The translations under genes and the position numbers were made by a program. DNA of 62,639 bases, filler included. It is 8 parts of 8 records of this genome, joined end to end, with 100 filler letters (N's around TTAATTAATTAA, not from the genome) between each part and the next. Parts side by side here need not be neighbours in the genome. Positions count along the whole stretch, not along the records: positions 21,534 to 32,253 come from SRR31156797_22242; 7 more parts are not named here. One strand, 5' to 3'. Numbering within the stretch: the first letter of the stretch is position 1; every line of letters starts with the position of its first letter. Shown piece after piece: positions 1 to 32,253 of this stretch. The notes under the pieces are model-generated. The model made no database searches and had not been told where the DNA came from. It saw only the letters and a list, made by a program, of their open reading frames with translations.

Positions 1-1438
1 CGATAAGATATTCATAGGCCGAATCGCCCCCGTCAAAGTGATCATATCGAAACGCCAGGCCCAAGGCGCCCCACCCTCCCTGCCAGACGTTTCGAAGCGG
101 CCGGATCGCCTGAATTTTGCCGCCTTTGAGCGTCGGTTTCTCCCCGGTAACCATCCACGTGATAGCGCCGTAATAATCTTTCAGATTGATGTCAAACTGA
201 GCGTCACCGGTTTTCACATCCGAGAACTGCAAATTGACGTATTCACCCCACAGGAGCAATGGGCCGTAAGCCCAGGCCAACTCGGCCCCATAACGGGTAC
301 GGGCGTTTACATCACGGATAATATTGAATTTTGCGGCTGAATTCACATCGAAGAATGTGGTCAGCCCGCCGGTTTTGACCGAAACTTTCACATTGTTTCG
401 ATCCGCTTTGGCGTAGCTGTAGGATCCCCCGACCTGAAGCCCGTTCCACAAGGGAAACCCCATGTTCTTGAAAGGAGCGTAAACGACTCGACCTGTAAAC
501 TCGGGAGAATCCGAATCACCCCCCACGGTGTCGTCCAAGCCATCACCGTTAAAAATACCTACCCCATAGTAGATTCGATCCTTCCAAAACGACGCATGGG
601 CCATGAGCCCAACATCCCGCCACGGCGTCAGGAAAAAACCCATGGCGCGTTCCGCAAAGGGAATATTTTTGTCGGAGGTATATTGTTCCAGACTGAAAGG
701 TTCTTTGAACTGGCCAACCCTAAAAGAGATAAACGGCAGCACCCGCGTGTCCACATAGGCATCCAAGAGCCTGCGGCTTCCGGCACCCTGAAACTGGTAT
801 TGAAATTTATAAAAAAATCGGCGGTAGAGGTGGCCGGTGAGCAGCAATCGGGCCCTGCGGATGTCAAATCTGTTTTTGGCGGGATCTTTATCGTTGTCAT
901 AGTTGAAATAGCGATAATCCACTTGAAGCAGGCCGCCGATGCGCAATTCAAAAAGATCTTTTTCCCGTGAACGCAAATAAAAACCGTTATCGAATACGGC
1001 CTCCAGCGGAGATGCCTTTTCTTTTTGTGAAAGTTCCTGAATTGATTTTTCCGTTCCGGATTTCGCTATCTCCTTTGAAGTTTTTTCTTCGGGAACCGGT
1101 GCATCAGATGGTTTATGAACCTCTTGTGCAATACGGTCTTGACTCAGGGAACGGGAGAGCTCCTTCGCTTCAATGGCCTGTTCCCTTTGAAGCAACGCTT
1201 TCTCTCTCTTTGCCACCGCTTGCTCACGATCGGCCAGGGCCTTTCGATCCTTGGCCATTGTCTTCTTAATTTTCCCAGCCTGTTCATCGCTGATGGCGCC
1301 ATTCTGCCGAAGCAGCTCCAACAGCTGCTCGAGCGCCTGAGTTTCAGCGCTACAGACGCCGTTTAAACCGACAAACAGCAAAATTGAAAAAATAGCGGTC
1401 ATTCCTCCGGGCAGAAGTTTCAGCAAAAAACATTTCAT
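1..1438 (-). CDS. OprO/OprP-family (phosphate/oxyanion-selective) porin, 3' end truncated by window edge
   Basis: Not in the ORF track because no stop falls in the window. Manual translation from ATG 1438 gives a signal peptide MKCFLLKLL...VCSA, a coiled-coil region, then GGLLQVDYRYF, FDIRRARL, LLDAYVD, VGQFKEPFSLE, RDVGLM, GIFNG, typical of Porin_O_P. Confidence 0.8.
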   Translation of the reverse strand, partial: MKCFLLKLLPGGMTAIFSILLFVGLNGVCSAETQALEQLLELLRQNGAISDEQAGKIKKTMAKDRKALADREQAVAKREKALLQREQAIEAKELSRSLSQDRIAQEVHKPSDAPVPEEKTSKEIAKSGTEKSIQELSQKEKASPLEAVFDNGFYLRSREKDLFELRIGGLLQVDYRYFNYDNDKDPAKNRFDIRRARLLLTGHLYRRFFYKFQYQFQGAGSRRLLDAYVDTRVLPFISFRVGQFKEPFSLEQYTSDKNIPFAERAMGFFLTPWRDVGLMAHASFWKDRIYYGVGIFNGDGLDDTVGGDSDSPEFTGRVVYAPFKNMGFPLWNGLQVGGSYSYAKADRNNVKVSVKTGGLTTFFDVNSAAKFNIIRDVNARTRYGAELAWAYGPLLLWGEYVNLQFSDVKTGDAQFDINLKDYYGAITWMVTGEKPTLKGGKIQAIRPLRNVWQGGWGALGLAFRYDHFDGGDSAYEYLI

Positions 1439-1601
1439 ACGTCCCATAACCTCTAAACTTATGTCACATCCGATGTAAGCAGTAGTAAAAAAAAGACCCG
1501 ATGCTTTTTCCATAAATACGGGCAGGCGCTTTTTACCGTTTATAGTTCATTATTGTCAAGCATTTTTCAATTTCATGAAAAACTCATCGATAAGATTCAA
1601 A

Positions 1602-1630
1602 TAATTACCCTAATTATCCCAAACTTACCC
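1602..1630. repeat. three ~10-bp tandem direct repeats (TAATTACCC / TAATTATCCC / AAACTTACCC) in divergent promoter region
   Basis: Read directly from sequence; immediately upstream of a TTGACT -35-like hexamer at 1646-1651. Confidence 0.5.
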
Positions 1631-1711
1631 GTAAAACATTGGCAATTGACTTATATGGATATACATGTTTTATTAAGATTTAAGGGACGCTGAACAGGAG
1701 GAAAAATTTCA

Positions 1712-2629
1712 ATGGAAGAAAAAACGCTGCTGAGTACTCGGGAACTGGCGAAATTCTTGAGTATCAACGAAAAAATGGTATATACATTGATTGCCGAGAA
1801 AAACCTTCCGGCCACCAAAGCCACCGGCAAATGGCTTTTTCCCCGTCATCTGGTGGAACAATGGCTGGAAGCCCAGACCATTAACTTCCCTAAACAGCCG
1901 GACCCACTACCGCCCTATGACGGCCTGCTCATTATTGCCGGCAGCAACGATATCCTTCTGGACCGGGCCATCTCCCTGATCAACCAACTCTACCCTGAAG
2001 AGATGGTGGCATTCGGCAACATGGGAAGTCTCGGGGGCATTCGAGCACTCAGGCGGAATCATTGCCATATCGCTTCAAGCCATTTGATCCAGAAAGACGG
2101 GGAAGAATACAATTTCGGGTTTGCCATAGATGAGCTGGGCCAGATGCCCGGCATCATCAATTTCTGTCGGAGGGAACAGGGCCTCCTAATCGAAAAAGGC
2201 AATCCCAGAAATATCCGCTCAGTGGCGGACCTCAATCAGATCGGCATCAAAATCATCAACCGCCCCTTGGGGACCGGAACCCGCCTGCTCCTGGACGAAG
2301 AGCTGAAAAAAGCCGGAATCGAAGGGGATGAGATTGACGGCTACACCAGGGAAGTATCGCGCCATCTGGACCTGGGGTTGGAAGTACTTTCCGGTCGTGC
2401 ACAGGCAGGGCCCTGCATCCGGGCTGTGGCCGAGCTTCTGGACCTGGATTTTGTTCCCATAAAATGGGAGAGTTTTGATCTGCTGATTCTCAAGGATCGG
2501 TTTTTTGAAAAAGGCGTGCAGCAATTCTTAGGTTTTTTGAGCGAACCACCCTTCAAAAAGCTGGGTGAGGAGCTGGCCGGGTATGACTTGGGTATTTCCG
2601 GGAAAATGCTCTTCCCCAAAGAATCGTAA
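1712..2629 (+). CDS. excisionase-type HTH (HTH_17) + PBP-like domain regulator, TaoR-like (Mo/W-associated)
   Basis: N-terminal LSTRELAKFLSINEKMVY..LPATKATGKWLFP; C-terminal GSND, GSLGG, REQGL, INRPLGTGTR of PBP_like domain; RBS AGGAGG. Confidence 0.85.
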   Translation: MEEKTLLSTRELAKFLSINEKMVYTLIAEKNLPATKATGKWLFPRHLVEQWLEAQTINFPKQPDPLPPYDGLLIIAGSNDILLDRAISLINQLYPEEMVAFGNMGSLGGIRALRRNHCHIASSHLIQKDGEEYNFGFAIDELGQMPGIINFCRREQGLLIEKGNPRNIRSVADLNQIGIKIINRPLGTGTRLLLDEELKKAGIEGDEIDGYTREVSRHLDLGLEVLSGRAQAGPCIRAVAELLDLDFVPIKWESFDLLILKDRFFEKGVQQFLGFLSEPPFKKLGEELAGYDLGISGKMLFPKES

Positions 2630-2653
2630 CAATCGTTCACGGCTTAACTGAGT

Positions 2654-3307
2654 ATGGATAATCACTATTTGAAAAACCGGCTAAACGATCGCTGGCCCGC
2701 ATGGGCCGCCATAACACTAAGGTTCATATCCAGGCTGGTTCGAACCAAGACAGTAGGAGTAGAACAAACCACAAGAGGTCCCTGCGGCATCGCCCACTGG
2801 CATGGGGATGAACTGGCGCTTATCCCCCGTTTCGGCCACATCGGCCCCACCATCCTGGTAAGCCATTCCAAAGATGGTTCATTCATGGCAAAGGGCGCCA
2901 CAGCCTTGGGATATCGCGTAACCCGGGGGTCATCCACCCGAGGCGCCGTAGGGGGGCTTCTGGCACTGATTAAAGCCGTCAGGAACGGCCATGCGGTGGT
3001 GCTGGCAGTGGACGGCCCACAGGGCCCTCGCGGCGTTTGTAAGCCTGGGATTGTCAGGGTGGTCCAGAAATCGGGAGTGCCTCTTTTCCCCGTGGGGGTG
3101 GCGGGATCAAACAGATTTGTATTTAAGAAATCCTGGAACCAGGCTTATCTTCCCCTCCCCTTTTCCCGCCAGGTGGTATGGGTTGACAAACCCATCTACT
3201 TCCCCAAAAAAGCCGAGGCCTCAAAAATACCCGAATACTGCCGCCGAGTGGAGAGGGCCATCGGGGACGCACAGAAAAAAGCCGAAGCATTGCTGAGAGA
3301 AAAATAA
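2654..3307 (+). CDS. DUF374 / lysophospholipid acyltransferase family protein
   Basis: HWHG, SHSKDG, RGSSTRG, VDGPQGP, KSW..LPLPFS motifs. Confidence 0.8.
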   Translation: MDNHYLKNRLNDRWPAWAAITLRFISRLVRTKTVGVEQTTRGPCGIAHWHGDELALIPRFGHIGPTILVSHSKDGSFMAKGATALGYRVTRGSSTRGAVGGLLALIKAVRNGHAVVLAVDGPQGPRGVCKPGIVRVVQKSGVPLFPVGVAGSNRFVFKKSWNQAYLPLPFSRQVVWVDKPIYFPKKAEASKIPEYCRRVERAIGDAQKKAEALLREK

Positions 3308-3327
3308 AGGAAAACCCGGGGGAGCGA

Positions 3328-3978
3328 TCAGAAGGGCCACAAACAGCAACCGCCTTTGTCCCTGAACTCATCTTGGCACGCCGCCAGTTGACCTCCATAT
3401 TTCACTGCTCTTTTCTGTACCTTTCTTGCCACCTTCAACAGCCACGCCTTCTTGGCATAGGTTTTCCGATTATAACCGCCGCGACCTTCATGATAGGCCA
3501 GGTAAAGATTTCGGGCATTGTTTCTAGATATGCCGCATTTCTTAACACTCAGTGAACAATACCATCCCACAAAATCGACGGCATCGCCGAAATCATCCCG
3601 GTCAGCCCAGGAATTGTCCGTACTTTCCTGATATTCCTCCCAGGTCACATCCAATACCTGGGCATATCCATAGGCGGAGGAAGGCCGAGGGCCCGGGAAA
3701 ATCCACAGGCAGGTGGTTCGAGGAGGTTTGGCATCGGAAATATATTTTGACTCCTGGTGCAGAATGGCCATCATAACCGGAATGGGAATACCCCATCTTT
3801 CATAAGCATCCGCCGCATGTTCATACCACTCATCATTCTCCCTGAAAATTTCGCAGATGTTGTCCGGATTTCCGGGTGGCTTGGGAGTTGCGCATCCAAA
3901 AAGAGCACCGAAGGTAAGACAGGCAAAAACCATTGTCAGCCCTTTGCACCCCAAAAGAAACAAGCGCCTCCCCACCAT
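3328..3978 (-). CDS. SLT-domain (lytic transglycosylase-like) lipoprotein
   Basis: Lipobox LFGC; MAILHQES, SSAYGYAQ, LYLAYHEG motifs. Confidence 0.75.
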   Translation of the reverse strand: MVGRRLFLLGCKGLTMVFACLTFGALFGCATPKPPGNPDNICEIFRENDEWYEHAADAYERWGIPIPVMMAILHQESKYISDAKPPRTTCLWIFPGPRPSSAYGYAQVLDVTWEEYQESTDNSWADRDDFGDAVDFVGWYCSLSVKKCGISRNNARNLYLAYHEGRGGYNRKTYAKKAWLLKVARKVQKRAVKYGGQLAACQDEFRDKGGCCLWPF

Positions 3979-3980
3979 CC

Positions 3981-5417
3981 CTATTTCCTTCTCCTTACCC
4001 CATAGTCCACTTCAACCGTGTCTTTAAATCCCGCTTCCAACTTCAAAAAAGCGGACGGAATCACCAGCTTTACGTCTATTTCTCCTGAACCTTTGATGTC
4101 GTTGAGGGGAATGCTGGCGGTATAAAGCGTCCACATGTCGTCGAGAATCGTCTTGGGGCCGCTGAGTTCGACCTTGGAAGGTTTGGTTTCCACCATGACA
4201 AGAAGCAGGTCCGGGGGCAGCTTGCCCACCCAATCCGCCTGTATGGGCAACATTTTTTTGGTACGCGTGTCCAGATTCACATCCAGCACCATGGGTCTTA
4301 CCTCCTTCAGGGAAAGCCCGGGCGGAATCGAAAGGTTATGGTTGGTAATGGCAAATGTGTTGGTTCCCGCAACGGCCTTGCCCAGATCCATCTTCACCCG
4401 GATCTGTTCGGGCCGGATGGATTTCAGAAGGGCCCTTGATCCCCGCAAAAAGAGTCGAACGGAAGTGGCGGATGTATTTAAAAGTTCCATGCCAGGTTTC
4501 TGATTGGCAAACTCCACGGGGATATCAAACGTTTTAATGGCATCGAGCCCCCTGCTGATGCTGAACCAAACGCCCGATACGATCAAAAGCGACACCAAGG
4601 CGGCGATTCTCAATTCAATCTTCCTTCTTTTTAAAAACTGACTCCGGTCTTCCCGAATTCCCAGGTGCTCCCTGAGGGCTTTGACCAATTGCTTTTTGCC
4701 ATCAATGGTCAACACATCCACACCTCGGGTTATGGTAATGGCTCCCCGTTCCTCGGATACGACAATCACCATGGCGTCGGTGGTTTCAGACAACCCTGCG
4801 GCGGCCCTGTGACGGGTTCCGTAAGCGCTGGGAAAGTCTTTTCGATGGGAAAGGGGGAGAATAACCCCGACTTCCGCGACCCGGTCTTCCACAATGATGG
4901 CCGCTCCGTCATGGACGGGATTGTTGGGCCAGAATATGCTTTCGATCATTTCCGTGGAAACACGGCCGTCCCATGGAATCCCTTGCTGAACAAACTCCTC
5001 CAGGTCCTCTTTTCCGGGCAGAACCATCAAAGCGCCGATACGTCTTTTGGCCAGGTCAAAGACACTTTCGGTAATGATTTCCACAGGGGTTTTCGTCGGC
5101 TTTCGGGGCAGGCCCCAGAGAATCGCCCAGATGTTCCGTGCACGGAAAACGGATCGAATTTCATTCCTGAAAACCACAATGACAATCAGAGCGGCAACAG
5201 CGATAATGCCTTCCATCATCCAGCTGGTCAGAATGAGACCCAGGGATACGGCCAATCTTTGCAAAATCCAGAGAAAGGCAATCCCCACAAGCACCCTGAA
5301 AGCATCCGTTCCTCGAAAAAGTGCATAAAGGCGAAAGAGGATATAACTGTTAAACGCGATGTCGATGAAGTCCTGCCATCGTATGCTGGATACAAAAATC
5401 AGAAGTTTTTGAATCAC
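3981..5417 (-). CDS. cdaA: diadenylate cyclase CdaA (DisA_N) fused to YbbR/CdaR domains
   Basis: Three N-terminal TM helices, RIGAL, HDGA, GTRHRAA, VSEERG; a further TM followed by YbbR-like repeats. Confidence 0.85.
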   Translation of the reverse strand: MIQKLLIFVSSIRWQDFIDIAFNSYILFRLYALFRGTDAFRVLVGIAFLWILQRLAVSLGLILTSWMMEGIIAVAALIVIVVFRNEIRSVFRARNIWAILWGLPRKPTKTPVEIITESVFDLAKRRIGALMVLPGKEDLEEFVQQGIPWDGRVSTEMIESIFWPNNPVHDGAAIIVEDRVAEVGVILPLSHRKDFPSAYGTRHRAAAGLSETTDAMVIVVSEERGAITITRGVDVLTIDGKKQLVKALREHLGIREDRSQFLKRRKIELRIAALVSLLIVSGVWFSISRGLDAIKTFDIPVEFANQKPGMELLNTSATSVRLFLRGSRALLKSIRPEQIRVKMDLGKAVAGTNTFAITNHNLSIPPGLSLKEVRPMVLDVNLDTRTKKMLPIQADWVGKLPPDLLLVMVETKPSKVELSGPKTILDDMWTLYTASIPLNDIKGSGEIDVKLVIPSAFLKLEAGFKDTVEVDYGVRRRK

Positions 5418-21533: not shown

Positions 21534-21554
21534 CATTCTAAATTTCATTATTCC

Positions 21555-21562
21555 TACATTTG
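21555..21562 (+). promoter_or_regulatory. Bacteroidota-type -7 promoter element (TACATTTG) for the integrase
   Basis: Matches TAnnTTTG about 20 bp upstream of ATG 21585. Confidence 0.45.
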
Positions 21563-21584
21563 GCCTACCAAAAATGAGCAGGGA

Positions 21585-22727
21585 ATGAGGAAACCCAAAA
21601 TCACACTGGCCTATGATGAACACCGCAATCGCGAGGTGGTGAGTTTGTGTTTTGATAAGGATTTTGAGTTGATCAACAAAGTAAAAACCATTCCTGGTGC
21701 TGCCTGGAGCCAGACTAAAACTTATTGGTACATTTTTAAAGAAGATTTTAACCTGGGAAAGGTTTTCGATGTTTTATCGCCGGTGGCTTACCTGGATTAT
21801 TCGGCGATTAAGCAACCGGCATCCATACCTAAAAAAAACACCAGGAAACAAAAAAAGGAAAAACTAAAACCGATTCTATCAGGCAACGTTAAAAAAAAGA
21901 TAGATTCGTTCAGACTTTGGATGGAACAAAACCGTTACAGGCCAAACACCATTGACACATACATAGATGCACTCCGCACTTTTTTTGGGTTCTTCAACCA
22001 CAACCACCCTGCATCACTTACCAACGATGACCTGATCGAATTTAATAAATCATTCATTATCCAGCGAAACTATTCCCCTTCTTATCAAAATCAGGTGATA
22101 AATGCCATAAAACTCTTTTACACAAAAGAACTGAAGCATGCGATGATAATTGATGAAATTGAACGCCCGATAAGGAGAAAGCCCCTGCCCAAAGTCCTGG
22201 CCAAAGCAACCATTAAGGAAATGCTGGCAGGAATTTCAAACCTCAAACATAAAACAGCACTAACGCTGGTTTACGGACTTGGATTAAGACGTGGTGAAAT
22301 ACTAAGGATGGAGGTCAGCCATATTGATTTTAACCGCAAAACCGTAATGATAATAAACAGTAAGGGCGGAAACGACAGGCCCCTTCCCTTGAGTGATAAA
22401 CTCATCAGGATGATTAAGCAGCAGCTTACCGCCTATGAACCAATGAAATATGTTATAGAAGGGAAAGCCAAAGGCAAGCCCTACAGCCCGACAAGCCTAA
22501 GTAACATTTTTGAAAAAAACCTTACGAAGGTAATTGGAGAAAACAAATATAGCCTGCATTGCCTGCGGCATTCGTATGCAACACATTTGCTGGAGGCCGG
22601 GGTTGACATACGATACATACAAGAACTGCTTGGGCACAAGAGCTCACGCACTACCGAAATATACACACATGTAAGCATGAAAAATTTAAGTAACATCAAA
22701 AACCCAACAGATGATTTCGACATTTAA
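21585..22727 (+). CDS. tyrosine recombinase (integron-integrase-like, N-terminal SAM-like domain)
   Basis: YGLGLRRGE, SKGGNDR, HCLRHSYATHLLEAGVDIRYIQELLGH, TTEIYTHV: complete R-K-H-R-H-Y set. Confidence 0.92.
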   Translation: MRKPKITLAYDEHRNREVVSLCFDKDFELINKVKTIPGAAWSQTKTYWYIFKEDFNLGKVFDVLSPVAYLDYSAIKQPASIPKKNTRKQKKEKLKPILSGNVKKKIDSFRLWMEQNRYRPNTIDTYIDALRTFFGFFNHNHPASLTNDDLIEFNKSFIIQRNYSPSYQNQVINAIKLFYTKELKHAMIIDEIERPIRRKPLPKVLAKATIKEMLAGISNLKHKTALTLVYGLGLRRGEILRMEVSHIDFNRKTVMIINSKGGNDRPLPLSDKLIRMIKQQLTAYEPMKYVIEGKAKGKPYSPTSLSNIFEKNLTKVIGENKYSLHCLRHSYATHLLEAGVDIRYIQELLGHKSSRTTEIYTHVSMKNLSNIKNPTDDFDI

Positions 22728-22802
22728 AATAGTAACACCCAAATGTGTACATAGCATGCAGGATATTGAAATATTGTTGGGAAAAGTCGAACCTATAAAC
22801 AA

Positions 22803-23242
22803 GTTGTATTTAATTTAAAATTTACGCACATGAATAAGATTTGTTTAAGGGGAAAGGAGGGAAAAATTTGAAGTCAAGTCGATTTCGGAAATACCGTTCA
22901 AGTTACACTTGATAACGTGGTTACGTTAAAAACGACTTGGCAAAGGAATAGGATTTTGCTGACAAAGTCAAGGATTTTGGCAACAAATTTTTACCCTGGG
23001 ATAATAAGTATCCGTTTTCGTTACAAGCCATATCATTACGGTTTGATATAACCAATTAAGAAAACGATAAACAAATCACAATAAATGGACAAAAGGAGTA
23101 AATTTGAAACTACGTTTTTTTTAACAAGTAAAATGAATGAAAAACTAAACACAACACGCGATGATTTCGCATTGCCGCCGGTGGGGTGGTTTTAATGATA
23201 GAAAAAAGCGGTATGGCGGCAACGACGACATATCGCGATAAC
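22803..23242 (+). mobile_element. integron-like cassette 1, non-coding (440 bp)
   Basis: Begins GTTGTATTTAATTT (22803-22816); its near-complement AAACTAAACACAAC (23142-23155) precedes a hairpin; no ORF of 60 aa or more on either strand. Confidence 0.65.
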
Positions 23243-23257
23243 GTTACCTGCAAGGCT
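23142..23257 (+). repeat. attC-like recombination site (imperfect hairpin)
   Basis: ...CACAAC-ACGCGAT..TTGCCGCC-loop-GGCGGCAA..ATCGCG-ATAAC-GTT: AAC/GTT core ends with paired arms. Confidence 0.7.
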
Positions 23258-23403
23258 AAAAAAATGAACAGTGATAATTAAAGAGACAAAATGAAATTAT
23301 TAAAAAAGCTAACTCAAATGAGGTTGAATTTTACAATTAAAAACTTGGGATTTATGTTTTTGAATGTACAAAATGATCTGTCTTATAGATTTATTGAATT
23401 CAT

Positions 23404-23411
23404 TAAATTTG
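23404..23411 (+). promoter_or_regulatory. Bacteroidota-type -7 element (TAAATTTG) internal to cassette 2
   Basis: TAnnTTTG 13 bp upstream of the first TIR gene. Confidence 0.4.
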
Positions 23412-23424
23412 AAAAAATATTGAC

Positions 23425-23799
23425 ATGGAAAAGAAAAGAGTCTTCATAAGTTTTGACTTTGATTACGACAGAATTCTTAAAGAGTTTGTTATCGGTCAAT
23501 CTAAAAAGCCTGATGCACCATTTAAGGTGATTGATCATTCATTGAAAGAAGCAGCCCCTGAAAGAGAATGGGAGAAAAAGGCTTTAGCTGCTATAAAGAG
23601 ATCAGAAATAGTTTTGGTAATGGTTGGGCCAAATACCTATCGAGCTCCTGGCGTATTAAAAGAGGTGCAAATGGCCAGAGATGAGGATAGAAAGGTCGTG
23701 CAGGTTATTGGGTACAAAGATGGCAATTATAAACCTGTAACCAATGCGGGTAAACTTTATCGATGGAATTGGGAAAATTTAAAAAATTTATTAAGCTAA
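23425..23799 (+). CDS. thsB: TIR-domain protein (Thoeris ThsB-like)
   Basis: KRVFISFDFDYD start, LVMVGPNT, catalytic-position Glu in GVLKEV. Confidence 0.8.
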   Translation: MEKKRVFISFDFDYDRILKEFVIGQSKKPDAPFKVIDHSLKEAAPEREWEKKALAAIKRSEIVLVMVGPNTYRAPGVLKEVQMARDEDRKVVQVIGYKDGNYKPVTNAGKLYRWNWENLKNLLS

Positions 23800-23810
23800 T
23801 GATTTGCGAT

Positions 23811-25271
23811 ATGCCTATCTCAAGAAAAACACTTATTAAGGAATATGTAGAAGCAATCCAAAGGGAGGAAGCTGCAATATTTGCTGGAGCAGGCCTTTCA
23901 ATACCAGCTGGTTTTGTAAATTGGAAAGAGCTTTTAAGAGATATAGCGGAAAGCATAGAATTGGATGTTGAGGAAGAATACGACCTGATTGCTTTGGCCC
24001 AATATTATGAAAATGATAGGAACAGGGGAAGATTAAATCAGGTACTAATCGATGAATTTGCTAAATCTGCATCAATTACAAAGAACCATGAAATTTTGGC
24101 CTCTATGCCAATAAGATATTATTGGACAACGAACTTTGATAAAGTTATTGAAAAAGCCATTGAAAGAGCAGGTAAAACACCGGATGTAAAAATTTCATTG
24201 CAGAATTTAGCACTATCGAGATTTAAAGCCGATGCAGTAATATACAAGATGCATGGAGATGTATCGCAACCACATGAAGCGATTATTACAAAAGAAGATT
24301 TTGAAACTTTCGAGGAAAAGAAGTCACTCTTTTCACTAGCTCTCAGAGGTGATTTGGTTACTAAAACATTCCTTTTTCTTGGTTATAGCTTTAACGACCC
24401 TAATCTCTTTTACATACTTAGCAAAATAAGATCCATCCTGGATAAAAACAGCAGACCTCACTATTGCATTATGCGGAAAGTCAAAAGAGAAGACTTTGTT
24501 AAAGAAGAATTTGCTGAGGAAGAAATTGATAAAAAGTATGAATATGCTATAAAGCAGCAAAGACACAGAATTTGTGATTTGAAAAGATACAATATTTCTA
24601 CTCATTTGGTTGATGATTATAGTGAGATAACAGAAATATTGAAGGAAATTCAAACTCACGTTAAAAGAAAAACAATTTTTATATCAGGAGCAGCTACCAC
24701 ATTTGCTGATCCTTGGAATGAAGAAATTGCTTTAGGATTTGTTCAGAAACTCAGTTTCAGGTTATCAGAACTAGGCTATAAAATTGTTACGGGCTTTGGA
24801 TATGGAATTGGAAGTTCTGTGATTAATGGAGTTTTGGAGAATATTAAGAACGCAAAGTATCGAAATCTTGATGATCACTTGATTATGCGTCCATTTCCCC
24901 AAGTTAGTAAGAAGGATGAAGAGAAAAAGGAAAGAAATACTCTATATCGCAGAGAAATGCTTAAACATGCTGGCATCACAATATTCCTTTTTGGCAACAA
25001 GCATTCAGATAAAGGAATTATTGAGTCACCAGGAATGCAGGAGGAATTTGATATTGCCGTTGAATACGGTATTGTTCCATTACCAATTGGATGTACTGGT
25101 TGGAAGTCAAAAACACTATGGGAAATTGTAAATAGGAATTTTCCAGATTTTTATACTGATGATGCTAGTTTGTATGAAAAATACAAGTCTCTGAATATAA
25201 AGAAACCCGAAGTAAGTTTGCTTGTTATAAGAATTGTGGAAATAATCGAAGCCCTAAACAAAATTAATTGA
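23811..25271 (+). CDS. thsA: SIR2 + SLOG/STALD NADase effector (type I Thoeris ThsA)
   Basis: SIR2: GAGLS, TTNFD, KMHGD, FLGYSFND. SLOG: IFISGA, IVTGFGYGIG, RPFPQ, YRREML, EEFDIA. Start revised to ATG 23811. Confidence 0.88.
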   Translation: MPISRKTLIKEYVEAIQREEAAIFAGAGLSIPAGFVNWKELLRDIAESIELDVEEEYDLIALAQYYENDRNRGRLNQVLIDEFAKSASITKNHEILASMPIRYYWTTNFDKVIEKAIERAGKTPDVKISLQNLALSRFKADAVIYKMHGDVSQPHEAIITKEDFETFEEKKSLFSLALRGDLVTKTFLFLGYSFNDPNLFYILSKIRSILDKNSRPHYCIMRKVKREDFVKEEFAEEEIDKKYEYAIKQQRHRICDLKRYNISTHLVDDYSEITEILKEIQTHVKRKTIFISGAATTFADPWNEEIALGFVQKLSFRLSELGYKIVTGFGYGIGSSVINGVLENIKNAKYRNLDDHLIMRPFPQVSKKDEEKKERNTLYRREMLKHAGITIFLFGNKHSDKGIIESPGMQEEFDIAVEYGIVPLPIGCTGWKSKTLWEIVNRNFPDFYTDDASLYEKYKSLNIKKPEVSLLVIRIVEIIEALNKIN

Positions 25272-25272
25272 T

Positions 25273-25776
25273 ATGGCACGAAAAGTATTCTTTAGTTTTC
25301 ATTACAAACCGGACAACTGGCGCGCATCAAAAGTTAGAAATATTGGTGTAATAGAAGGGAACAGACCTGTGACAGACAATAAATGGGAAGAAATTACTGA
25401 TGGAGGTGATGATGCCATTGAGGATTGGATTGATGAAAATATGAGTGGAAAATCCTGTTGTGTTGTTCTTGTTGGCGAAAAAACCGCTGGCCGGAAATGG
25501 ATTAAATATGAAATAAAAAAAGCCTGGAATGATGGCAAAGGGGTATTAGGAATTTGTGTTCACAATATTACTGATCGAGATGATAAACAATCAAAAAAAG
25601 GCAGAAATCCATTTGAAGATTTCAGTGTTAAAAAGAATGGTGAAAAAGTTGGATTTGATAAAGTAATTAAGTTGTATGATCCTCCATATACAACTTCTAA
25701 AAATGTTTATATGCATATTAGTGAGAATATTGTGGATTGGATAGAAGAAGCAATTGAGATTAGGAATAGCTTTTAA
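25273..25776 (+). CDS. thsB: TIR-domain protein (Thoeris ThsB-like, DUF1863)
   Basis: MARKVFFSFHYKPDNWRA, VVLVGEKTAGRKWIKYEI, GKGVLGI. Confidence 0.88.
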   Translation: MARKVFFSFHYKPDNWRASKVRNIGVIEGNRPVTDNKWEEITDGGDDAIEDWIDENMSGKSCCVVLVGEKTAGRKWIKYEIKKAWNDGKGVLGICVHNITDRDDKQSKKGRNPFEDFSVKKNGEKVGFDKVIKLYDPPYTTSKNVYMHISENIVDWIEEAIEIRNSF

Positions 25777-25784
25777 ATTATATA

Positions 25785-27716
25785 ATGCTAATGGCACATT
25801 CATGTGAAGACGTAGTCTTGCTCTATTGCAAGGATGATATAATAAAGGTCGATATCATTAAGAAAGTATTCTATGAAAATGGTTTTACTGTTTTTGTAAG
25901 TGATCTTGATTCATCAAAGTCTAAGGATTCAATTCCCGTCCAAATAGCGTCCAAAATAGGGAATACAAATGCAGTTTTTATGATTGTGGGTCCAAAAACT
26001 GGAACTTTTCAGGTTATACTTGAACAGGATCTTGTGGTTGCTCAAATTAGTGATCCTAATAGAAATCTAGCTGTAGGAAATATTCTATTGATCGATGAAG
26101 AAAGCTACCCGAAAGATAAACTATCCTATTTTTTTAATTATAACAAATATCGACTTACGGGCGAATTAACTTTTGAAGAAAATAGGGAAATCTATTTATC
26201 AATTTTTCAATTGATACAAAAGACTAATAATACTTTTAATTTTGAAATTGCTAATAGTTGCCTTAATTCTATTCAATATGAATTACCAAAATCTTCATTA
26301 AATCAAAGGCACTACATACCAGGCCATAACAAAGTAATTCCCTATTTAAAAAAGACAGATGTAATTGATAGCGAAGAAAAGCTAACTTCATTTCTAAGGA
26401 CTCATACTAATGTTTTATTGCTAGTTGGCCCACAATTGTACGGTAAATCACTTTTAGTAAATAAAATAATTAATAACCTTAAAAAAGAATATTTTACCAA
26501 TAACAAAGAAAATGAGATTGAGTATAAATTTTATTCAGGAGAATTACCAGTAGAGAGATTTGCAACTATTCTTTATGAAGATTATGATAAGACAGAAGAG
26601 TTAGAGGGAGAAAAGAAAGAGAATTTAACTGAACCTTATAACTTATTTTTTTCTACTTCTGCCTATATTATTATGTCTGATATTATTAAAGCACTGAGTG
26701 AAGAAGACAAGAGAAAACTAAAGCAAAAAAATTATAGTTGGCTTGAACCTCTAGCATTGGTGCTTAAACAAAAGAATTTTATATCATTGATAATTGATGA
26801 TAAAAATAATAAATATTCAAGAAGTGAATCATATTTTTCAGTTATCTCTAAAATAATTAATAACCTTCTCATAGATGCAGGTATTTCTAATTATGAAAGA
26901 ATTTATGTGCTTGATATTGAAAACTTTAATAGTATTCTTGATAAATATAAGATTGATAAGGATAAGGTATTATCTAATTTTCTTTATCAAATCAAATTAG
27001 AAGAAATCTCTATATCGCAAAATCATCAATTAAACAATATACGCTTTTTAATAACGTCAAGAAACTTGCCAGGATTAAAAGAAAAAGATTTGATGGGCAA
27101 TAAACCTCCATTGATTAAACTGAAGGATTATAACCAGAAAGATTATATAGGCAACTTCATAGAAAACACTGTAATAAATAGCCTAATAAATTCAAATAAC
27201 CTGAATATCAATGACATTACAAGCGAAATCCAAAGTACAACAAATGGACACCCATGGTTTGTTTATAGATGGCTTAAATCATTTTTATTTTTAATCTCTA
27301 ATAAGAAAATTGTTAATATTGATAAGCTATTTTTGAATATCAAAGAGAATCACTTGTTCTGGTATTTAGAAGCCCCTTTTTCGAAAAGATATTTCCATGA
27401 CTTAAGTTTATTTAAAACCCGACAAGCTATAACTGAAAGCTCATTTTTAGTAGGAATTAAAAAGGCTTTTTACATTGAAGATTACGAGCATAATTGGATC
27501 CTAAATGAGAAATTATTCAACTGCTATAGGACAATAATCGGCAAACCTGGTAGTGACCCTGAACAAAAATATATTTTTGAACTAGAGAAGTTGGGATTAA
27601 TTTTTAAAACAAATAAAATGAAAGGAACATATGACTATTCGAACGAAATTATAAGACTGCAGTTTAACCCAGATTTGCTCAAAGATTATTTTAATATAGA
27701 ATTAGATGCTAAATAA
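25785..27716 (+). CDS. divergent TIR-like domain + STAND-like P-loop NTPase
   Basis: N-terminus DVVLLY..D..KV......GFTVFV...AVFMIVG....Q..LE (TIR-like); Walker A GPQLYGKS; LDIENF Walker-B-like; TNGHPW (STAND GxP). Confidence 0.6.
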   Translation: MLMAHSCEDVVLLYCKDDIIKVDIIKKVFYENGFTVFVSDLDSSKSKDSIPVQIASKIGNTNAVFMIVGPKTGTFQVILEQDLVVAQISDPNRNLAVGNILLIDEESYPKDKLSYFFNYNKYRLTGELTFEENREIYLSIFQLIQKTNNTFNFEIANSCLNSIQYELPKSSLNQRHYIPGHNKVIPYLKKTDVIDSEEKLTSFLRTHTNVLLLVGPQLYGKSLLVNKIINNLKKEYFTNNKENEIEYKFYSGELPVERFATILYEDYDKTEELEGEKKENLTEPYNLFFSTSAYIIMSDIIKALSEEDKRKLKQKNYSWLEPLALVLKQKNFISLIIDDKNNKYSRSESYFSVISKIINNLLIDAGISNYERIYVLDIENFNSILDKYKIDKDKVLSNFLYQIKLEEISISQNHQLNNIRFLITSRNLPGLKEKDLMGNKPPLIKLKDYNQKDYIGNFIENTVINSLINSNNLNINDITSEIQSTTNGHPWFVYRWLKSFLFLISNKKIVNIDKLFLNIKENHLFWYLEAPFSKRYFHDLSLFKTRQAITESSFLVGIKKAFYIEDYEHNWILNEKLFNCYRTIIGKPGSDPEQKYIFELEKLGLIFKTNKMKGTYDYSNEIIRLQFNPDLLKDYFNIELDAK

Positions 27717-30660
27717 TATCATTAAAAATAGAATAATAAATCTTCTGGACTCCTCAGCTAACTTTTTAGAAGGTATAGGAGTAATGGAAAAAGTAGATAT
27801 TAAGTACAGCAATGTTTATCTTTTAAGAAGAGATTTACTTGACTCAAAAGTAATGAAAGAGGTAATAGTTGTTCCTGATGATCTCATTCAAAATATAAGC
27901 GATTATGTTTCAAAGATCAAACAGGAAGATATTATACTAAAGGAATCGTCAATATTTTTTGTTGATTTATTTGGTGTTGATATTAATGATCCAATTAGAA
28001 TAGAGAAAAATATTAAGATATTAAATGCGAAAGAACTATGGAATCACCTATTTAAACTTTCTAAATACTTTGAAAATATTGAAACGGAGATTGGGATTGA
28101 AAGATTAAATTTAAAGTACCTCAATCAGTTGGCTGAAGAGATAATTGAATTAAATTACATTGGTGAGTCTGCAACAAGAGAAATCAATACTAATATTTCT
28201 GAATACTTATCAAATTGGGCTAAAGGAGATAATAATCAAAACGGCATATTTATTTTGGGTGAGCGTGGAGCTGGGAAAACATGGGCAATGAAAAAATTTG
28301 TAATTGATCAAAATTCTCTTCACTTAGAAAATGAATGGATAAATCCACCTGCAGTTTATGTAAACCTAAAGAACTTTGGAGAATTCCTTTATAATAATCA
28401 AGGTATTAAAAAGTCATTAGCATATTATATTTTTAAACATTATAATATTAGAAGTTATTCAGAATTGTATTTCATTAATTCGGCTATCTTGAATGGTCAT
28501 TTTATATTATTACTAGATGGACTCGATGAATTGATTAATACATATAATACAGAAGATGTATTATTACAGTATCATACGATTGCAAATTACTTATCCGCCA
28601 GTAGTAGGGTAATATTCTCAATGAGAAGCAGTAAGCTGCCACAATATAAATTTTTGCTAAATCATTTTACCAGACGAGAACCTAAAGAAGGATTGAAAAG
28701 AGAAAAAAGTAAACAATTCTTCTTACCTAATATTACATTTATTAAGCTTCTTCCACTTATCAATAATGAAATAAAAGACCTTTTAAAGAATAATTTGGCA
28801 CTTCTAAATAATCAGATTAATACAGAATCGAAAATATTAAATATTTTATCTAGTAAAAATTTCTTAGACACCCAATTAAAAGACTTAGCCAAAATTCCCA
28901 CTTGTGCTCAAAAAATAATAGATTATATTGACACTGGAATTGGAGATAATTTACGGGTTTTTGAACTGTCATTATTTTATCCATTATTAGTTTATAATAT
29001 TGAATCCAAAAGAGCGCAAACTGAGTATTTTATTAATGAAGAAATTAAAAGAATTGATCTACCCGAAAGAATTTCAATAATAAATCATATTGCCTGGCGA
29101 TTAATTGAAATTGGTGAAAAAGAATTTGATCCGGATATTATTGGCTATTCCTTTCTTGAGGTTCCTATAGAAGAATTTGAAGAGATATTAAATGACATCC
29201 GTTCACAAACAATTTTTGAATTAAGTGAAACAAGTAATCGAATTAGATTCAGGCTTTGTTCTATACAATACTATTTTGCAGCTAGATACATATTTTCTAA
29301 TTTGATTGATGCTAAAGATATAAATCTACAAGAAGGAATCAAACTCTTGGGCAGATACAACCTTACGATAAATGATAGAGTAAATATTCTTAACTTCTTA
29401 ATTTTATTTTTTGAAAAAGGTATATTAAAACCATGGATCGTAGATGAAGTGTATTTTAATATAGAGGATTTTAAGATTAATAGCAAAAAATACACTGCTA
29501 ATGTAGCTAATGATTTTAAAAATGAATTAATGAATTTTGCAAAAAATCCTGATATGACTTTTTCCCCTCATGCTAGGTTTTTGAAAACTAATATGATTAA
29601 AATTGCAAGAGATATTACAACAGTGAAAAATGACTTTATTAAGGAGTTCGATAATCAGTTAAAGACATGGGATAATATTGATATTCCGATCATGGATTAT
29701 CAGGGTGTATTAATAAAGAATGAGTCATTATCTTTTATTATTAGTTGCAGAGAAGTTACTCGCAATGATTTTAAATCCTTTCTGGAAAGCAATTATATAC
29801 CTAAACTAATATGTAAGAATAGTGATTCGGAATTTCCCAAATTGATAAAATTTGATTATCGCGAATTGAGAGATATTAAAAGCCATCCATTATCATGGTC
29901 CCATATTCATGGAAAAATTAAAGGTGGTCCTGATAATTTGTTACTAAAGTATTTTACTAATGATTATCACTTGTTTAAATGGATAAATGATGAATATAAT
30001 CCTGAAACTAATGATTACCCGGTTGTATGGATCAGTGGTTTTATAGCAACAATTTATTTAAATTGGTTAACATTAATAGAGCAAATTAAGAATAATAATA
30101 TTAAAATCACTTCACAAAATGATTTAGACAATTATTTAGATTCTAATAACATAGATTTCTTTTATAATATCGGTCTCAAGGAGATTCAGAAACCTTATTT
30201 AACAATAAATAAAAATAGTTTAGGATATAGACTTCCCACAAAAGAAGAATGGATGTTTGCAGCTAGAGCAAATGATAAAGGGTTTTATCCATGGGATAAA
30301 TACTTGAACAATAATTTACCAGAAGGTATTCAAAAAGAAAAGGTGAAGGAAATGGGAAGATTATTAAAAAGATATTTATTAGAGCCAACAACAGAAACAA
30401 AAAGTGCCATGTCAAGCCGTTGCAATGATTTTGGTTTATTTGATATGATTGGAAATGTAAGAGAATGGGCTGATGTTACTGATGATGAAAAAAATATCAA
30501 TCTTGACTATGTTGAAGGTAGTGTTATGGGAGCAACATTTGCGCTTGGAGAAGAATCTTTTTTATTCAATAACAAAGGAAGTAAATTACCATTTATCAAT
30601 ACAAATTTAGATGTAGGCTTTAGATGGGCACGGTCATTTTTGATTTCAAAAATTTATTAA
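27706..30660 (+). CDS. NACHT/STAND NTPase with C-terminal FGE-sulfatase (SUMF1/FGS) domain
   Basis: GERGAGKT, LLLDGLDE; C-terminal EVT..DF..FL, PVVWIS, YRLPTKEEW.FAAR, NDFGLFDMIGNVREW, VGFRWAR. Confidence 0.8.
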   Translation: MLNNIIKNRIINLLDSSANFLEGIGVMEKVDIKYSNVYLLRRDLLDSKVMKEVIVVPDDLIQNISDYVSKIKQEDIILKESSIFFVDLFGVDINDPIRIEKNIKILNAKELWNHLFKLSKYFENIETEIGIERLNLKYLNQLAEEIIELNYIGESATREINTNISEYLSNWAKGDNNQNGIFILGERGAGKTWAMKKFVIDQNSLHLENEWINPPAVYVNLKNFGEFLYNNQGIKKSLAYYIFKHYNIRSYSELYFINSAILNGHFILLLDGLDELINTYNTEDVLLQYHTIANYLSASSRVIFSMRSSKLPQYKFLLNHFTRREPKEGLKREKSKQFFLPNITFIKLLPLINNEIKDLLKNNLALLNNQINTESKILNILSSKNFLDTQLKDLAKIPTCAQKIIDYIDTGIGDNLRVFELSLFYPLLVYNIESKRAQTEYFINEEIKRIDLPERISIINHIAWRLIEIGEKEFDPDIIGYSFLEVPIEEFEEILNDIRSQTIFELSETSNRIRFRLCSIQYYFAARYIFSNLIDAKDINLQEGIKLLGRYNLTINDRVNILNFLILFFEKGILKPWIVDEVYFNIEDFKINSKKYTANVANDFKNELMNFAKNPDMTFSPHARFLKTNMIKIARDITTVKNDFIKEFDNQLKTWDNIDIPIMDYQGVLIKNESLSFIISCREVTRNDFKSFLESNYIPKLICKNSDSEFPKLIKFDYRELRDIKSHPLSWSHIHGKIKGGPDNLLLKYFTNDYHLFKWINDEYNPETNDYPVVWISGFIATIYLNWLTLIEQIKNNNIKITSQNDLDNYLDSNNIDFFYNIGLKEIQKPYLTINKNSLGYRLPTKEEWMFAARANDKGFYPWDKYLNNNLPEGIQKEKVKEMGRLLKRYLLEPTTETKSAMSSRCNDFGLFDMIGNVREWADVTDDEKNINLDYVEGSVMGATFALGEESFLFNNKGSKLPFINTNLDVGFRWARSFLISKIY

Positions 30661-30666
30661 AGGAAT

Positions 30667-32178
30667 ATGAATACATTAACACAAACTGAAGGCTATCTAT
30701 TCTTAGCCATTTTTGCAATCGTAATGATTGGATTAACCTGGCTTGTTTCAAGAAACAAAGCCTGGACAGGAAGTCAGATCGGTTTTTTAAAAGCAGGTTC
30801 AAATGTTCCCTGGGGAATTGGGGCATTTAGTATTGCCGCATCATGGATATGGGCACCTGCCTTATTTGTGAGTGTTCAGAAATCTTATGAACTGGGGCTT
30901 GCTGGTATGTTCTGGTTTACTATTCCAAATATTTTGGCATTGGTAATTTTTGCGTTTTTAGCACCAAAAATCAGAAAAAGGCTTCCCGGTGGCTACACAT
31001 TACCGGATTGGATCAGGTACAGATTTAAAGATGAAAGAATTCATAAGATTTATCTCTTCATTTATTTTTGGTACCAGATAATGGCAATCACGGTACAGGT
31101 CTTTGTAGGTGGACTACTTCTATCATTCTTAACAGGTATTTCGCTTAATATGGTGATGATATTATTAACTGCAATTGGACTATCTTATGCTCTAATCTCT
31201 GGTCTAAGGGCCTCTGTTGTAACTGATTTCTTACAGATGATCATGATATTCGGCGTTGGCATCATTATAATTCCATGGGCGGCCGCTGAAGGTGGAGGAT
31301 GGGAGGCCATTGCAAAAGGGTTTGGAGGATTACAGCATGTAAAAGGCATTTTTGATCCTGGAGTTGTATACTCGTTTGGTATTGTAACAACTATCGGGTT
31401 AATTGCGGGTTCAATTTCAGATCAGCAATACTGGCAAAGAAGTTTTGCAATTAAAAAGAATCAACTGGTAAAATCATTTGTTTGGGGAGGTATATTCTTT
31501 GGTATTGTTCCACTTGCATTATCAATATTAGGTTTCATGGGAGCCAATCCAGATTTGGGGGTTGCAGTGCCAAAAGATGTAAATCTACCAATGATTGGAG
31601 TAGCAGTGGTTGGAAAACTTTTACCAACCTGGGCAACAGTATTGTTTGTTATAATGCTAATGAGTGGTTTAAGTTCCACACTCGATTCGGGTTTCGCGGC
31701 AGGAGCTTCTTTGTGGGCGATTGACACGGTGCGATTATCAAAAAAGGAAAAGGAAATATTGAGGAAAGAACGATTAGAAAAAGAATTAACTAGCGAAGAA
31801 ATTATAATAAGGGAAGAACTCGATAAAAAAACCCCCAGAAGAGCAAGGCAAGCGATGATTGGATTAGCCATAATCGGTTTAATAGTAGCCTTTATTGTTG
31901 AATATGTACCGAATTTTACGTTGGATATTCTTTGGTGGATTTTTAATGCTATTGCATCTATGGCTGTTGTGCCAACAATACTAGGCCTGTTTTGGGATAA
32001 GTTATCAGTAAAAGGAGTTCTTCTAGGCTTTATTGGTTCATTCTTAGGAATAGTTGGCTTTATTTGGGGAAGTGCCATAGCAAATACGAATCTCATTGTA
32101 TTCTCAGCGATCTTTATCATTGCTATCAGTTTAATTATGAACTTGTCTTTTCCAGGTAAAGAAAATTTTACTGACTAA
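30667..32178 (+). CDS. sodium:solute symporter family protein (DUR3-like)
   Basis: Many TM helices; SIAASWIWAPALF, YALISGLRASVVTD, DQQYWQR, SGLSSTLDS. Confidence 0.85.
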   Translation: MNTLTQTEGYLFLAIFAIVMIGLTWLVSRNKAWTGSQIGFLKAGSNVPWGIGAFSIAASWIWAPALFVSVQKSYELGLAGMFWFTIPNILALVIFAFLAPKIRKRLPGGYTLPDWIRYRFKDERIHKIYLFIYFWYQIMAITVQVFVGGLLLSFLTGISLNMVMILLTAIGLSYALISGLRASVVTDFLQMIMIFGVGIIIIPWAAAEGGGWEAIAKGFGGLQHVKGIFDPGVVYSFGIVTTIGLIAGSISDQQYWQRSFAIKKNQLVKSFVWGGIFFGIVPLALSILGFMGANPDLGVAVPKDVNLPMIGVAVVGKLLPTWATVLFVIMLMSGLSSTLDSGFAAGASLWAIDTVRLSKKEKEILRKERLEKELTSEEIIIREELDKKTPRRARQAMIGLAIIGLIVAFIVEYVPNFTLDILWWIFNAIASMAVVPTILGLFWDKLSVKGVLLGFIGSFLGIVGFIWGSAIANTNLIVFSAIFIIAISLIMNLSFPGKENFTD

Positions 32179-32227
32179 TAGGTCCTGATGTTTTTAATTG
32201 GACAATCTGAATAAAGCCCAGCAGGTA

Positions 32228-32253
32228 ATCGAGTAGACGGCCGTGAGCCCTAA
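32228..32253 (-). mobile_element. 3' terminus (domain VI) of a group II intron inserted antisense into the attC-like site
   Basis: Minus strand reads TTAGGGCTCACGGCCGTCTACTCGAT/TACCTGC; CTACTCGAT is a typical IIC intron end and replaces the expected AC of the inverse core; only 26 bp visible. Confidence 0.6.

Follow-up and report, generated by a model that had tools for sequence, protein, structure and literature searches.

A contig at positions 21534–32253 of the window analysed here, the whole stretch of 62,639 nucleotides (nt), carries a tyrosine recombinase gene that is followed on the same strand by a short conserved docking site, a small cassette, and a foldable element. Very probably, what starts here is an integron-like platform for capturing genes, one of a kind that is widespread in Bacteroidota and works with a recombinase other than IntI, the integrase of canonical integrons. 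The window (1–62639) joins eight unrelated-looking contigs (G+C 0.33–0.60) through spacers of 44 N, TTAATTAATTAA, and a further 44 N, so that genes on opposite sides of a spacer are not genome neighbours. The contig in question is 10,720 nt long with a GC content of 32.5%, and the ATG of the integrase gene lies 51 nt from its start. For comparison, 80 loci were fetched around integrase relatives from species-representative genomes and complemented by 32 metagenome loci, giving 112 in all.

A first-pass annotation, made from the letters of the window, had called the tyrosine recombinase and its co-orientation with the array, and the gene proved intact, encoding a protein of 380 amino acids (aa) with the expected Pfam domains (Table 1). 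The catalytic residues R235, K260, H325, R328, H351, and Y360 are present, as judged from invariant family columns and a structure alignment. Among NCBIfam models, the protein scored highest with XerA_Arch (182.8 bits; cut-off 220) and second-best with the integron integrase model TIGR02249 (178 bits versus a cut-off of 265, in two stretches), while PRK15417 gave 114.4 bits against a cut-off of 435. XerC (146.9 versus 335) and XerD (143.6 versus 330) were no closer; every Xer equivalog cut-off was left unreached and the protein thus passes no curated NCBIfam cut-off, be it for IntI or for Xer. In the PDB, Vibrio IntI4 (2A3V, E 1.4e-34) and Pyrococcus abyssi XerA (4A8E, E 2.4e-34) tie as matches. 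The XerA alignment runs in a single unbroken stretch through the catalytic and SAM-like domains from end to end, whereas that with 2A3V breaks at query positions 305/319 versus chain positions 206/261, leaving 13 residues opposite 54. It is here that IntI has its additional domain; the integrase therefore lacks the IntI insertion, and the first-pass impression of a missing insertion was borne out.

Residues 1 to ~75 form an extra domain that is kept across the family. Its topology is beta-beta-alpha-beta-beta-alpha-beta, and in the AlphaFold2 (AF2) model of the integrase (mean predicted local distance difference test score, pLDDT, 84.8) these residues are among the confident ones, with values of 94–97 over residues 1–70. 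Structure comparison of the domain by VIA returned T4 UvsW (Z 6.5; root-mean-square deviation 2.2, 62 residues aligned), XPB (Z 5.9), and SMARCAL1 HARP (4O66; Z 4.1), all of them below 8, the tool's caution level; Foldseek gave E 0.08 or worse, and Pfam, HARP included, yielded no match to the domain in the integrase or in 30 family proteins. In the model, the domain weakly resembles the branched-DNA-recognition domains of UvsW, XPB, and SMARCAL1 HARP, which we take as a lead rather than a finding; by this likeness, it may help the enzyme to read folded DNA.

The integrase family is very large—7,639 of 8,000 candidates scored at E ≤0.001—and its named members are Bacteroidota. Among the matches listed, the closest protein relatives share 91%, 67%, and 61% identity and are encoded on ~2-kb contigs; the metagenome scan gave no full-length relative closer than 53%. 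Several metagenome contigs (within L098–L112) match only the last 30–80 residues of the integrase, at 59–87% identity, some of them at a contig start. In L102, L108, and L110–L112 such tail matches lie mid-contig, with a folded site downstream in L110, L111, and L112, and these may be integrase remnants heading arrays. In run X1, the probable source sample, three other contigs match the first 80–225 nt of the integrase region (21534–21805) at ~87–90% identity, with depths of 318–379 compared to 363 for the present contig. This suggests several paralogous platforms in one community or genome of the source sample, which would explain why the contig breaks 51 nt before the ATG.

The docking site is conserved in sequence and position. 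A search within 450 nt after the integrase stop, allowing up to three mismatches to TATAAACAAGTT and requiring a terminal GTT, recovered the motif in 70 of the 80 loci, mostly 58–110 nt past the stop; 66 of these were kept as credible, after four had been discarded (three lying >300 nt from the stop and one with three mismatches in an odd context). In the window, the site lies 66 nt after the integrase stop and the G of its GTT is position 22803, exactly where the first-pass annotation had placed an attI-like junction. Directly 5′ of this core, a short hairpin can form: over the 66 loci and the window, 64.4% of cells pair, compared to 24–41% when the partner is slid, and double changes occur in 92 cells versus 43 in shuffles, with none of 500 shuffles reaching 92. 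Five of its six pairs form in the window. The structure was drawn by eye from these same sequences, and the pairing count leans towards it.

In L083, the closest locus, DNA similarity spans the 3′ end of the integrase gene and the spacer and halts at 22805, and a blastn comparison of 22600–32253 with the 112 loci detected no shared DNA past 22822. Contigs also tend to end here: 32 of the 80 locus contigs run out within 340 nt past the integrase stop, as compared to six that start within 500 nt before the match. Among the 51 site-bearing contigs ending less than 6 kb downstream, nine end 0–8 nt after the GTT and six end 51–52 nt after it. A final assembly k of 55 is a common default. If it was used, these two classes of ends would mark branching just after the GTT and merging at the GTT, a pattern that fits variable right-hand partners and a fixed exchange point.

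Downstream of the docking site, the homologous loci share a folded element. In 25 of the 36 loci with at least 1.5 kb of downstream sequence, the 14 nt starting at the GTT recur once, reverse-complemented with up to two mismatches, 284–3,639 nt further downstream (+339 in the window); the same complement was found upstream in 0 of 37. All of these inner boxes have AAC at their end; then come an A, a stem arm, a loop of ~70 nt, the second arm, AAAAC or AACC, and GTT, amounting to a hairpin of ~135 nt. A chain finder gathered 34 of these sites, of which 30 were aligned; the four set aside were two whose lengths stood out (113 and 180 nt) and two at the ends of contigs, one of which extended beyond its contig. 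RNAalifold predicted 17 pairs from the aligned sites, and all 17 show compensatory changes. The chain finder was crude, its strict stem test missing the window's own site and several loci, and a covariance model of the 30 aligned sites—hereafter R1, trained on no window sequence—took over.

With R1, we detected 97 sites at E ≤0.01 in 80 loci (660 kb), all on the integrase strand and 95 of them downstream of the integrase, in arrays of up to seven sites in 6 kb. Twelve further sites, without exception on the + strand, came from the 32 metagenome loci. Of the 41 loci that have a docking site and at least 1 kb of downstream sequence, 33 contain one or more structured sites. Homologous integrases thus do head variable, co-oriented downstream arrays, the very feature on whose presence the first-pass reading had been staked. 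The two matches upstream of an integrase, on its strand (L025:753–902 and L059:3518–3663), may be the tail of another array or stray sites.

Folded from AAC to GTT, the bottom strand was more stable in 59 of 84 sites (mean 1.31 kcal/mol, Wilcoxon p 6e-6; nine short or low-scoring sites of 93 were omitted), and in the window the values are −18.2 for the bottom and −17.9 for the top strand. The effect is small, yet agrees with the integron model, and by analogy the folded site would act as single-stranded DNA, probably through its bottom strand. As a separate observation, cassette starts (first ~35 nt, L001–L080) share the pattern GTT-N6-(C/T)A(A/T)-NN-TAAAA(A/C)GAC-...-ACA. No complement to this extended pattern was found near the inner box, and it is a candidate for an extended binding site or an expression leader.

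The relation between the two boxes constitutes a permutation rule: the inner box near a cassette's far end pairs with the start of that same cassette, not with the start that happens to lie next to the box. As the training sites had been found with this rule itself, it was tested on the R1 matches, 93 of 97 being usable (two were cut by contig ends and two lay upstream of the integrase). On average, the inner box matched its own cassette start at 11.6 of 14 positions, compared to 6.6 for the adjacent start and 6.66 for random starts. For the 63 sites outside the training set, the means were 11.29 and 6.4, and at least ten positions matched in 55 of 63 cases for a cassette's own start versus 4 of 63 for the adjacent one. 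The comparative data hence favour what the first-pass annotation had proposed, a separate cassette-shuffling system. By analogy to integrons, such a rule is what circular units would leave behind when inserted through exchange at GTT.

The window's own cassette follows the same plan. R1 matches 23142–23256 on the + strand over the full model length (29.3 bits, E 2.7e-5), its only match below E 1 in the 62.6 kb; the ~100-nt imperfect hairpin bounded by AAC and GTT, noted in the first-pass annotation, is therefore recognized by a model built from homologous loci, and nothing else in the window is. Its inner box is complementary to the cassette's own start (22803–22816) at 12 of 14 positions, as had been noticed before, and to the adjacent start (23243–23256) at five. 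No other 14-mer on the + strand of the contig reaches 12 of 14; in the whole window that pattern has two matches, one of them the probe's own place, with 0.76 expected by chance. Folding both strands of the hairpin, a check proposed along with the first-pass annotation, was less telling: the segment 23157–23238 folds at −18.6 kcal/mol (z −1.6) as the + strand and at −19.0 kcal/mol (z −2.7) as the − strand, which is weak when taken alone. Cassette 1 contains no open reading frame (ORF) of at least 50 aa.

Cassette 1 occurs in a second context. Run X2, from another study, holds it alone (22803–23245) at ~90–100% identity, with unlike flanks on both sides. One X2 contig covers 22803–23050 and has 28 unlike letters directly before 22803 (...GCAAACC, then GTT), which from their letters look like the 3′ half of another folded site. 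Another covers 23130–23245 and continues for >250 nt into unlike sequence that starts GTGTGTAAGTGT and resembles a typical cassette start. With these flanks, the 443-nt unit sits between two other partners, cut exactly at both predicted GTTs. Runs X5 and X8 contained only short pieces of low similarity, mostly from coding regions, from which nothing was drawn, and there were no strand-changing joints among the contigs compared. Elsewhere in the window, contig 5 starts with GAAACGTTGAGAC, like the 3′ end of a site; it was dropped as no matching inner box lies downstream.

The cassettes of the comparison set (n = 93) have a median length of 814 nt (range 247–5,368). Ten of them lack an ORF of at least 50 aa; among the remaining 83, 75 have their longest ORF on the + strand. 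At E ≤1e-5, 43 of the 83 cassette ORFs had no Pfam match, the remainder being accessory or defence genes; the cargo includes AIPR, GmrSD (2), NB-ARC-TPR, Mrr-helicase, Zeta toxin, Gp49, and PIN as well as Imm9, Imm-NTF2, SUKH-1, MerT-HMA (2), a cation efflux protein, and GNAT. On the other side, the nearest gene upstream of the integrase (50 loci) is mostly a housekeeping gene, such as those for IspF, CTP synthase, EPSP synthase, RecO, HU, SSB, PurL (twice), iPGM (twice), thiamin pyrophosphokinase (twice), and dihydroorotate dehydrogenase. These neighbours place the platform on the chromosome and not at the end of a conjugative or mobilisable element.

Sites are numerous within genomes and common across the phylum. 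Three whole genomes hold at least 21, at least 27, and at least 17 sites, in several clusters each, and of 151 genomes drawn evenly from the phylum to which the genome of L026 belongs, at least 82 had an R1 match at E ≤1e-6; 20 candidates were scored per genome, which makes these counts lower bounds. In one genome (G002, that of L027), the array beside the fetched integrase lies at ~5.364–5.379 Mb, with site clusters at ~3.85–3.89 Mb (13) and 2.241–2.247 Mb (5) and minus-strand clusters elsewhere. The locus from F. psychrophilum DSM 3660 (L040) has two sites.

Table 1 Features of the contig, in coordinates of the window.
Feature	Position	Strand	Basis or detail
Xer/IntI-clade tyrosine recombinase	21585–22727	+	380 aa; Pfam Phage_integrase 1.5e-35, Phage_int_SAM_4 8.9e-16
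Extra N-terminal domain of the integrase, residues 1 to ~75	21585–21809	+	AF2 model, fold comparison
Short inverted repeat/hairpin, 6-bp stem and 5-nt loop, directly 5′ of the core site	22776–22792	+	Pairing over 67 sequences
attI-like core TATAAACAAGTT	22794–22805	+	Motif kept after integrase stop in homologues
Cassette 1, 443 nt including both GTTs: outer box, body, own attC-like site	22803–23245	+	Run X2
Outer box of cassette 1	22803–22816	+	
attC-like folded site: inner box, stem arms, linker ATAAC, GTT	23142–23245	+	R1 match, fold
Inner box AAACTAAACACAAC	23142–23155	+	12/14 versus own cassette start
Stem arms of attC-like site	~23157–23180 and 23210–23238	+	
Linker ATAAC, then terminal GTT of attC-like site	GTT 23243–23245	+	
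Start of next unit GTTACCTGCAAGGC, of the family's cassette-start type	23243–23256	+	X2 diverges after 23245
Type I Thoeris: ThsB-like TIR, ThsA SIR2+STALD, ThsB	23425–23799, 23763–25271, 25273–25776	+	Pfam, PADLOC
Two large genes (643 aa and 984 aa), 25–29% GC	25785–30660	+	Pfam, composition
Sodium:solute symporter, ~40% GC	30667–32178	+	Pfam SSF 6.4e-25
Last 46 nt of the contig with candidate inner box at 32216–32229	32208–32253	+	Repeat in probable source sample X1

The first-pass annotation had also recognized a second cassette obeying the same rule, and of this claim the start has held up: similarity to X2 ends exactly at 23245, so that a new unit starts at the GTT at 23243. Its end is doubtful. 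Run on 23260–32253 with filters off, R1 gave nothing below E 0.26, nor a truncated match at 32216. The sole candidate inner box, at 32216–32229, pairs with 23243–23256 at 11 of 14 positions and lies 24 nt from the contig end; two of its mismatches fall at the family's usual positions, while the third is terminal, with AAT then C in place of the invariant AAC-A. Record 8 of run X1 shares 32208–32253 behind different sequence, which marks this segment as a repeat. That the whole 9-kb stretch after 23245 is one cassette hence appears doubtful; it is likelier that 23245 marks the array's end and that the defence genes either came in by a separate route or lost their sites.

On the + strand, 697 nt with no ORF of at least 50 aa separate the integrase gene from a series of ORFs, those for a ThsB-like protein, ThsA, ThsB, the 643-aa and 984-aa proteins, and the symporter. 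PADLOC assigned ThsA1 (618.8 bits, 1.4e-186) and ThsB1 (237.9 bits, 1.3e-71), and the arrangement is that of type I Thoeris, with ThsA (SIR2 with SLOG/STALD) adjoining a TIR-like ThsB; the first ThsB-like ORF (124 aa) reached 27 bits in Pfam and had no PADLOC match. No folded site lies after these genes, and they are not counted as cassettes. For the 643-aa protein, Pfam, NCBIfam, and PADLOC gave no match. The 984-aa protein has a weak NACHT match (23 bits, below the cut-off) and a weak C-terminal match resembling FGE-sulfatase, and by position the two genes may form a STAND-type (signal transduction ATPases with numerous domains) defence pair. GC content forms a mosaic, with 39–41% in the integrase gene, 33–37% in Thoeris, 25–29% in the two large genes, and ~40% in the symporter gene, which is close to the integrase value and may belong to the host chromosome rather than to the cargo. 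The window contains no tRNA and thus no tRNA-type att site. Rfam had no family at E ≤1 on the contig and none at ≤0.1 on five array loci, and within the contig the hairpin has no second copy, nor is there a meaningful direct or inverted repeat pair.

In the mechanism we propose, a chromosomal recombinase of the Xer/IntI clade would serve a docking site directly downstream of, and co-oriented with, its gene, composed of a short hairpin and then TATAAACAA and GTT. Circular cassettes would each carry one folded site—an inner box ending in AAC, an imperfect stem of ~20–25 bp, a loop, an A-rich linker of 4–5 nt, and GTT with the outer box—and would be inserted at the docking site, exchange taking place at the GTT triplet, with the integrase as the presumed catalyst and the exchange point presumably inside the GTT. 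After such exchange, the outer box at the start of every cassette in an array would be the pairing partner of the inner box towards the other end of that cassette. In the window, one cassette (22803–23245) would have been captured ahead of the defence-gene stretch; a cassette-free joint is predicted to read ...TATAAACAA + GTTACCTGC..., and the joint of the circle would connect 23242 to 22803.

Several observations weigh against this interpretation. Eight of the 41 loci with a docking site and sufficient flank have no site at E ≤0.01 in their 6-kb flank (L007, L029, L033, L041, L047, and L073, as well as L061 and L080, which have a 3′-truncated match at the contig end), and eight of 93 sites reach less than ten of 14 positions against the start of their own cassette. 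The chain finder that seeded R1 made use of the permutation rule, which confines the independent test to the 63 non-training sites. The preference for the bottom strand amounts to little, and wobble pairs in the stems point, if anything, to the top strand. The window has a single site, its + strand hairpin is by itself not significant against shuffles (z −1.6), and the loop measures 39 nt compared to ~72 in R1. The fold match of the N-terminal domain to UvsW, XPB, and HARP stays under the tool's caution level of 8. Recombination was not observed: the contigs compared contain no excision or circle junction for cassette 1, and contigs cannot show rare forms.

Four other explanations were considered. 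The folded element could be an independent repeat—REP-like (repetitive extragenic palindrome), MITE-like (miniature inverted-repeat transposable element), a terminator, or an RNA motif—that gathers near a Xer-like gene whose product does not act on it. Whole genomes do hold sites far from the fetched integrase copy, two of 97 matches lie upstream of the integrase, and recombination of the sites by the integrase stays a prediction. Yet all 109 model matches are on the integrase strand, the first cassette always begins at the conserved site beside the integrase, Rfam has no match, and the permutation rule together with the exact-boundary transfer of cassette 1 requires site-specific exchange at GTT, which renders such a repeat very improbable. 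Bacteroidota are known for invertons driven by tyrosine recombinases, and the two 14-nt boxes are indeed inverted repeats flanking the cassette body, between which a recombinase might flip the segment, as in an inverton or shufflon. However, the unit found elsewhere (22803–23245) includes the hairpin outside the repeat pair, the repeat stops at the GTT with no extension into the left arm, 75 of 83 cassettes carry their ORF on the + strand, and covariation of the hairpin would have no role in an inverton; with no strand-changing joint among the contigs compared, we give this possibility the least credence of the four.

An ordinary integrative island carrying Thoeris and other defence genes, with 22794–22805 as its att site and an incidental hairpin, would account for an integrase at the contig edge beside 7 kb of low-GC defence genes and for the lack of a second model match in 9 kb. 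But upstream neighbours in 50 other loci are mostly housekeeping genes rather than mobile-element machinery, downstream DNA in other loci consists of arrays of short cassettes, and the window's first unit is a 443-nt cassette moving on its own. While such an island may describe how the defence block at 23.4–30.7 kb arrived, as an account of the locus it is very improbable. We consider it just as improbable that the locus is a canonical integron, with a divergent but true IntI and ordinary attC sites callable by standard tools. IntI4 is the best PDB match, TIGR02249 the second-best NCBIfam match, and the logic of the sites (AAC...GTT, permutation rule) is that of an integron; against this, the integrase lacks the IntI insertion (13 versus 54 residues), falls below both curated IntI cut-offs (178 versus 265 and 114 versus 435) with XerA_Arch higher at 182.8, and matches P. 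abyssi XerA equally well in one unbroken stretch. In Table S1 of IntegronFinder 2.0 (PMC9024848), both Cyclobacterium genomes have 0 complete integrons, 0 attC-site clusters without an integrase (CALIN), and 0 In0, as does every Flavobacterium row among those examined, including 14 F. psychrophilum genomes, all from strains other than the loci studied here. Yet genomes of these genera carry 17 to at least 27 sites by our model. As far as these rows go, they fit the suspicion, voiced at first reading, that standard integron tools may miss the system.

The platform we favour instead is best compared with sedentary chromosomal integrons such as that of V. cholerae (VchIntIA/IntI4). The two share a tyrosine recombinase of the same clade beside its docking site in a chromosomal setting; arrays in which the cassettes are co-oriented and mostly hold a single gene; a site that is an imperfect palindrome between ...AAC and GTT..., with structure kept over sequence; cassette starts that pair with their own far end; and a cargo of largely unknown, defence, toxin–antitoxin, or metal-resistance genes. 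Unlike those integrons, the platform has an integrase without the IntI additional domain that scores below the IntI cut-offs, carries an extra N-terminal domain of ~75 aa, and is co-oriented with the array. In the platform, the inner and outer boxes pair along ~14 nt with a constant 2-nt mismatch, the usual spacer gives way to an asymmetric linker of 1 by 5 nt, the docking site has a short covarying hairpin, and the genera concerned are unreported in the IntegronFinder 2.0 table, as judged from the rows seen.

Co-orientation of integrase and array has precedents, namely in integrons of Treponema denticola and others. With these and with archaeal integrons, the platform shares co-directional integrase and cassettes and an attI immediately downstream. 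Archaeal integron integrases, however, keep the IntI-specific additional domain that the platform's enzyme lacks, according to the portion of Ghaly et al. 2022 (PMC9668308) considered here. As for Xer recombinases (XerC/D and archaeal XerA 4A8E), the integrase aligns end to end with XerA (E 2.4e-34) and has XerA_Arch as its best NCBIfam match, but remains under every Xer cut-off, and its sites are folded elements of 100–146 nt in contrast to the 28-bp duplex dif-like sites of Xer. Among Xer-associated elements are dif, IMEX (integrative mobile elements exploiting Xer), and pdif modules. The last of these differ in using paired inverted sites, whereas the platform has one site per cassette and the permutation rule.

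Bacteroidota have been reported in surveys to be almost integron-free (PMC9024848). According to the same article, nothing but In0 had been on record for Bacteroidetes, to which IntegronFinder 2.0 contributes a single complete integron, from Salinibacter ruber. Defence systems have been reported among the cassettes of chromosomal integrons (bioRxiv 10.1101/2024.07.02.601686). A published description of the present system was not found in the full-text literature searched, a body from which subscription journals are largely absent.

Integrons are defined by IntI, and its additional domain is held necessary for acting on folded attC sites. Here, the full logic of an integron appears with an enzyme that lacks this domain, in a phylum thought to be near integron-free. 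On balance, we lean towards a second, phylum-wide integron lineage, in which a Xer-like recombinase without the IntI domain reads folded sites, possibly through its N-terminal domain; such a lineage would occur in over half of the species of Bacteroidota, would have been missed by the standard definition, and would serve as a store of anti-phage genes among other roles. What makes the window a clean case is that its integrase is intact, that its array consists of one cassette, and that this cassette recurs with exact boundaries in another community. Should the enzyme be shown to act on these sites, views on what structure-specific recombination minimally requires would have to be revised, the pool of known cassette genes would become substantially larger, and there would be a gene-capture tool native to Bacteroidota.

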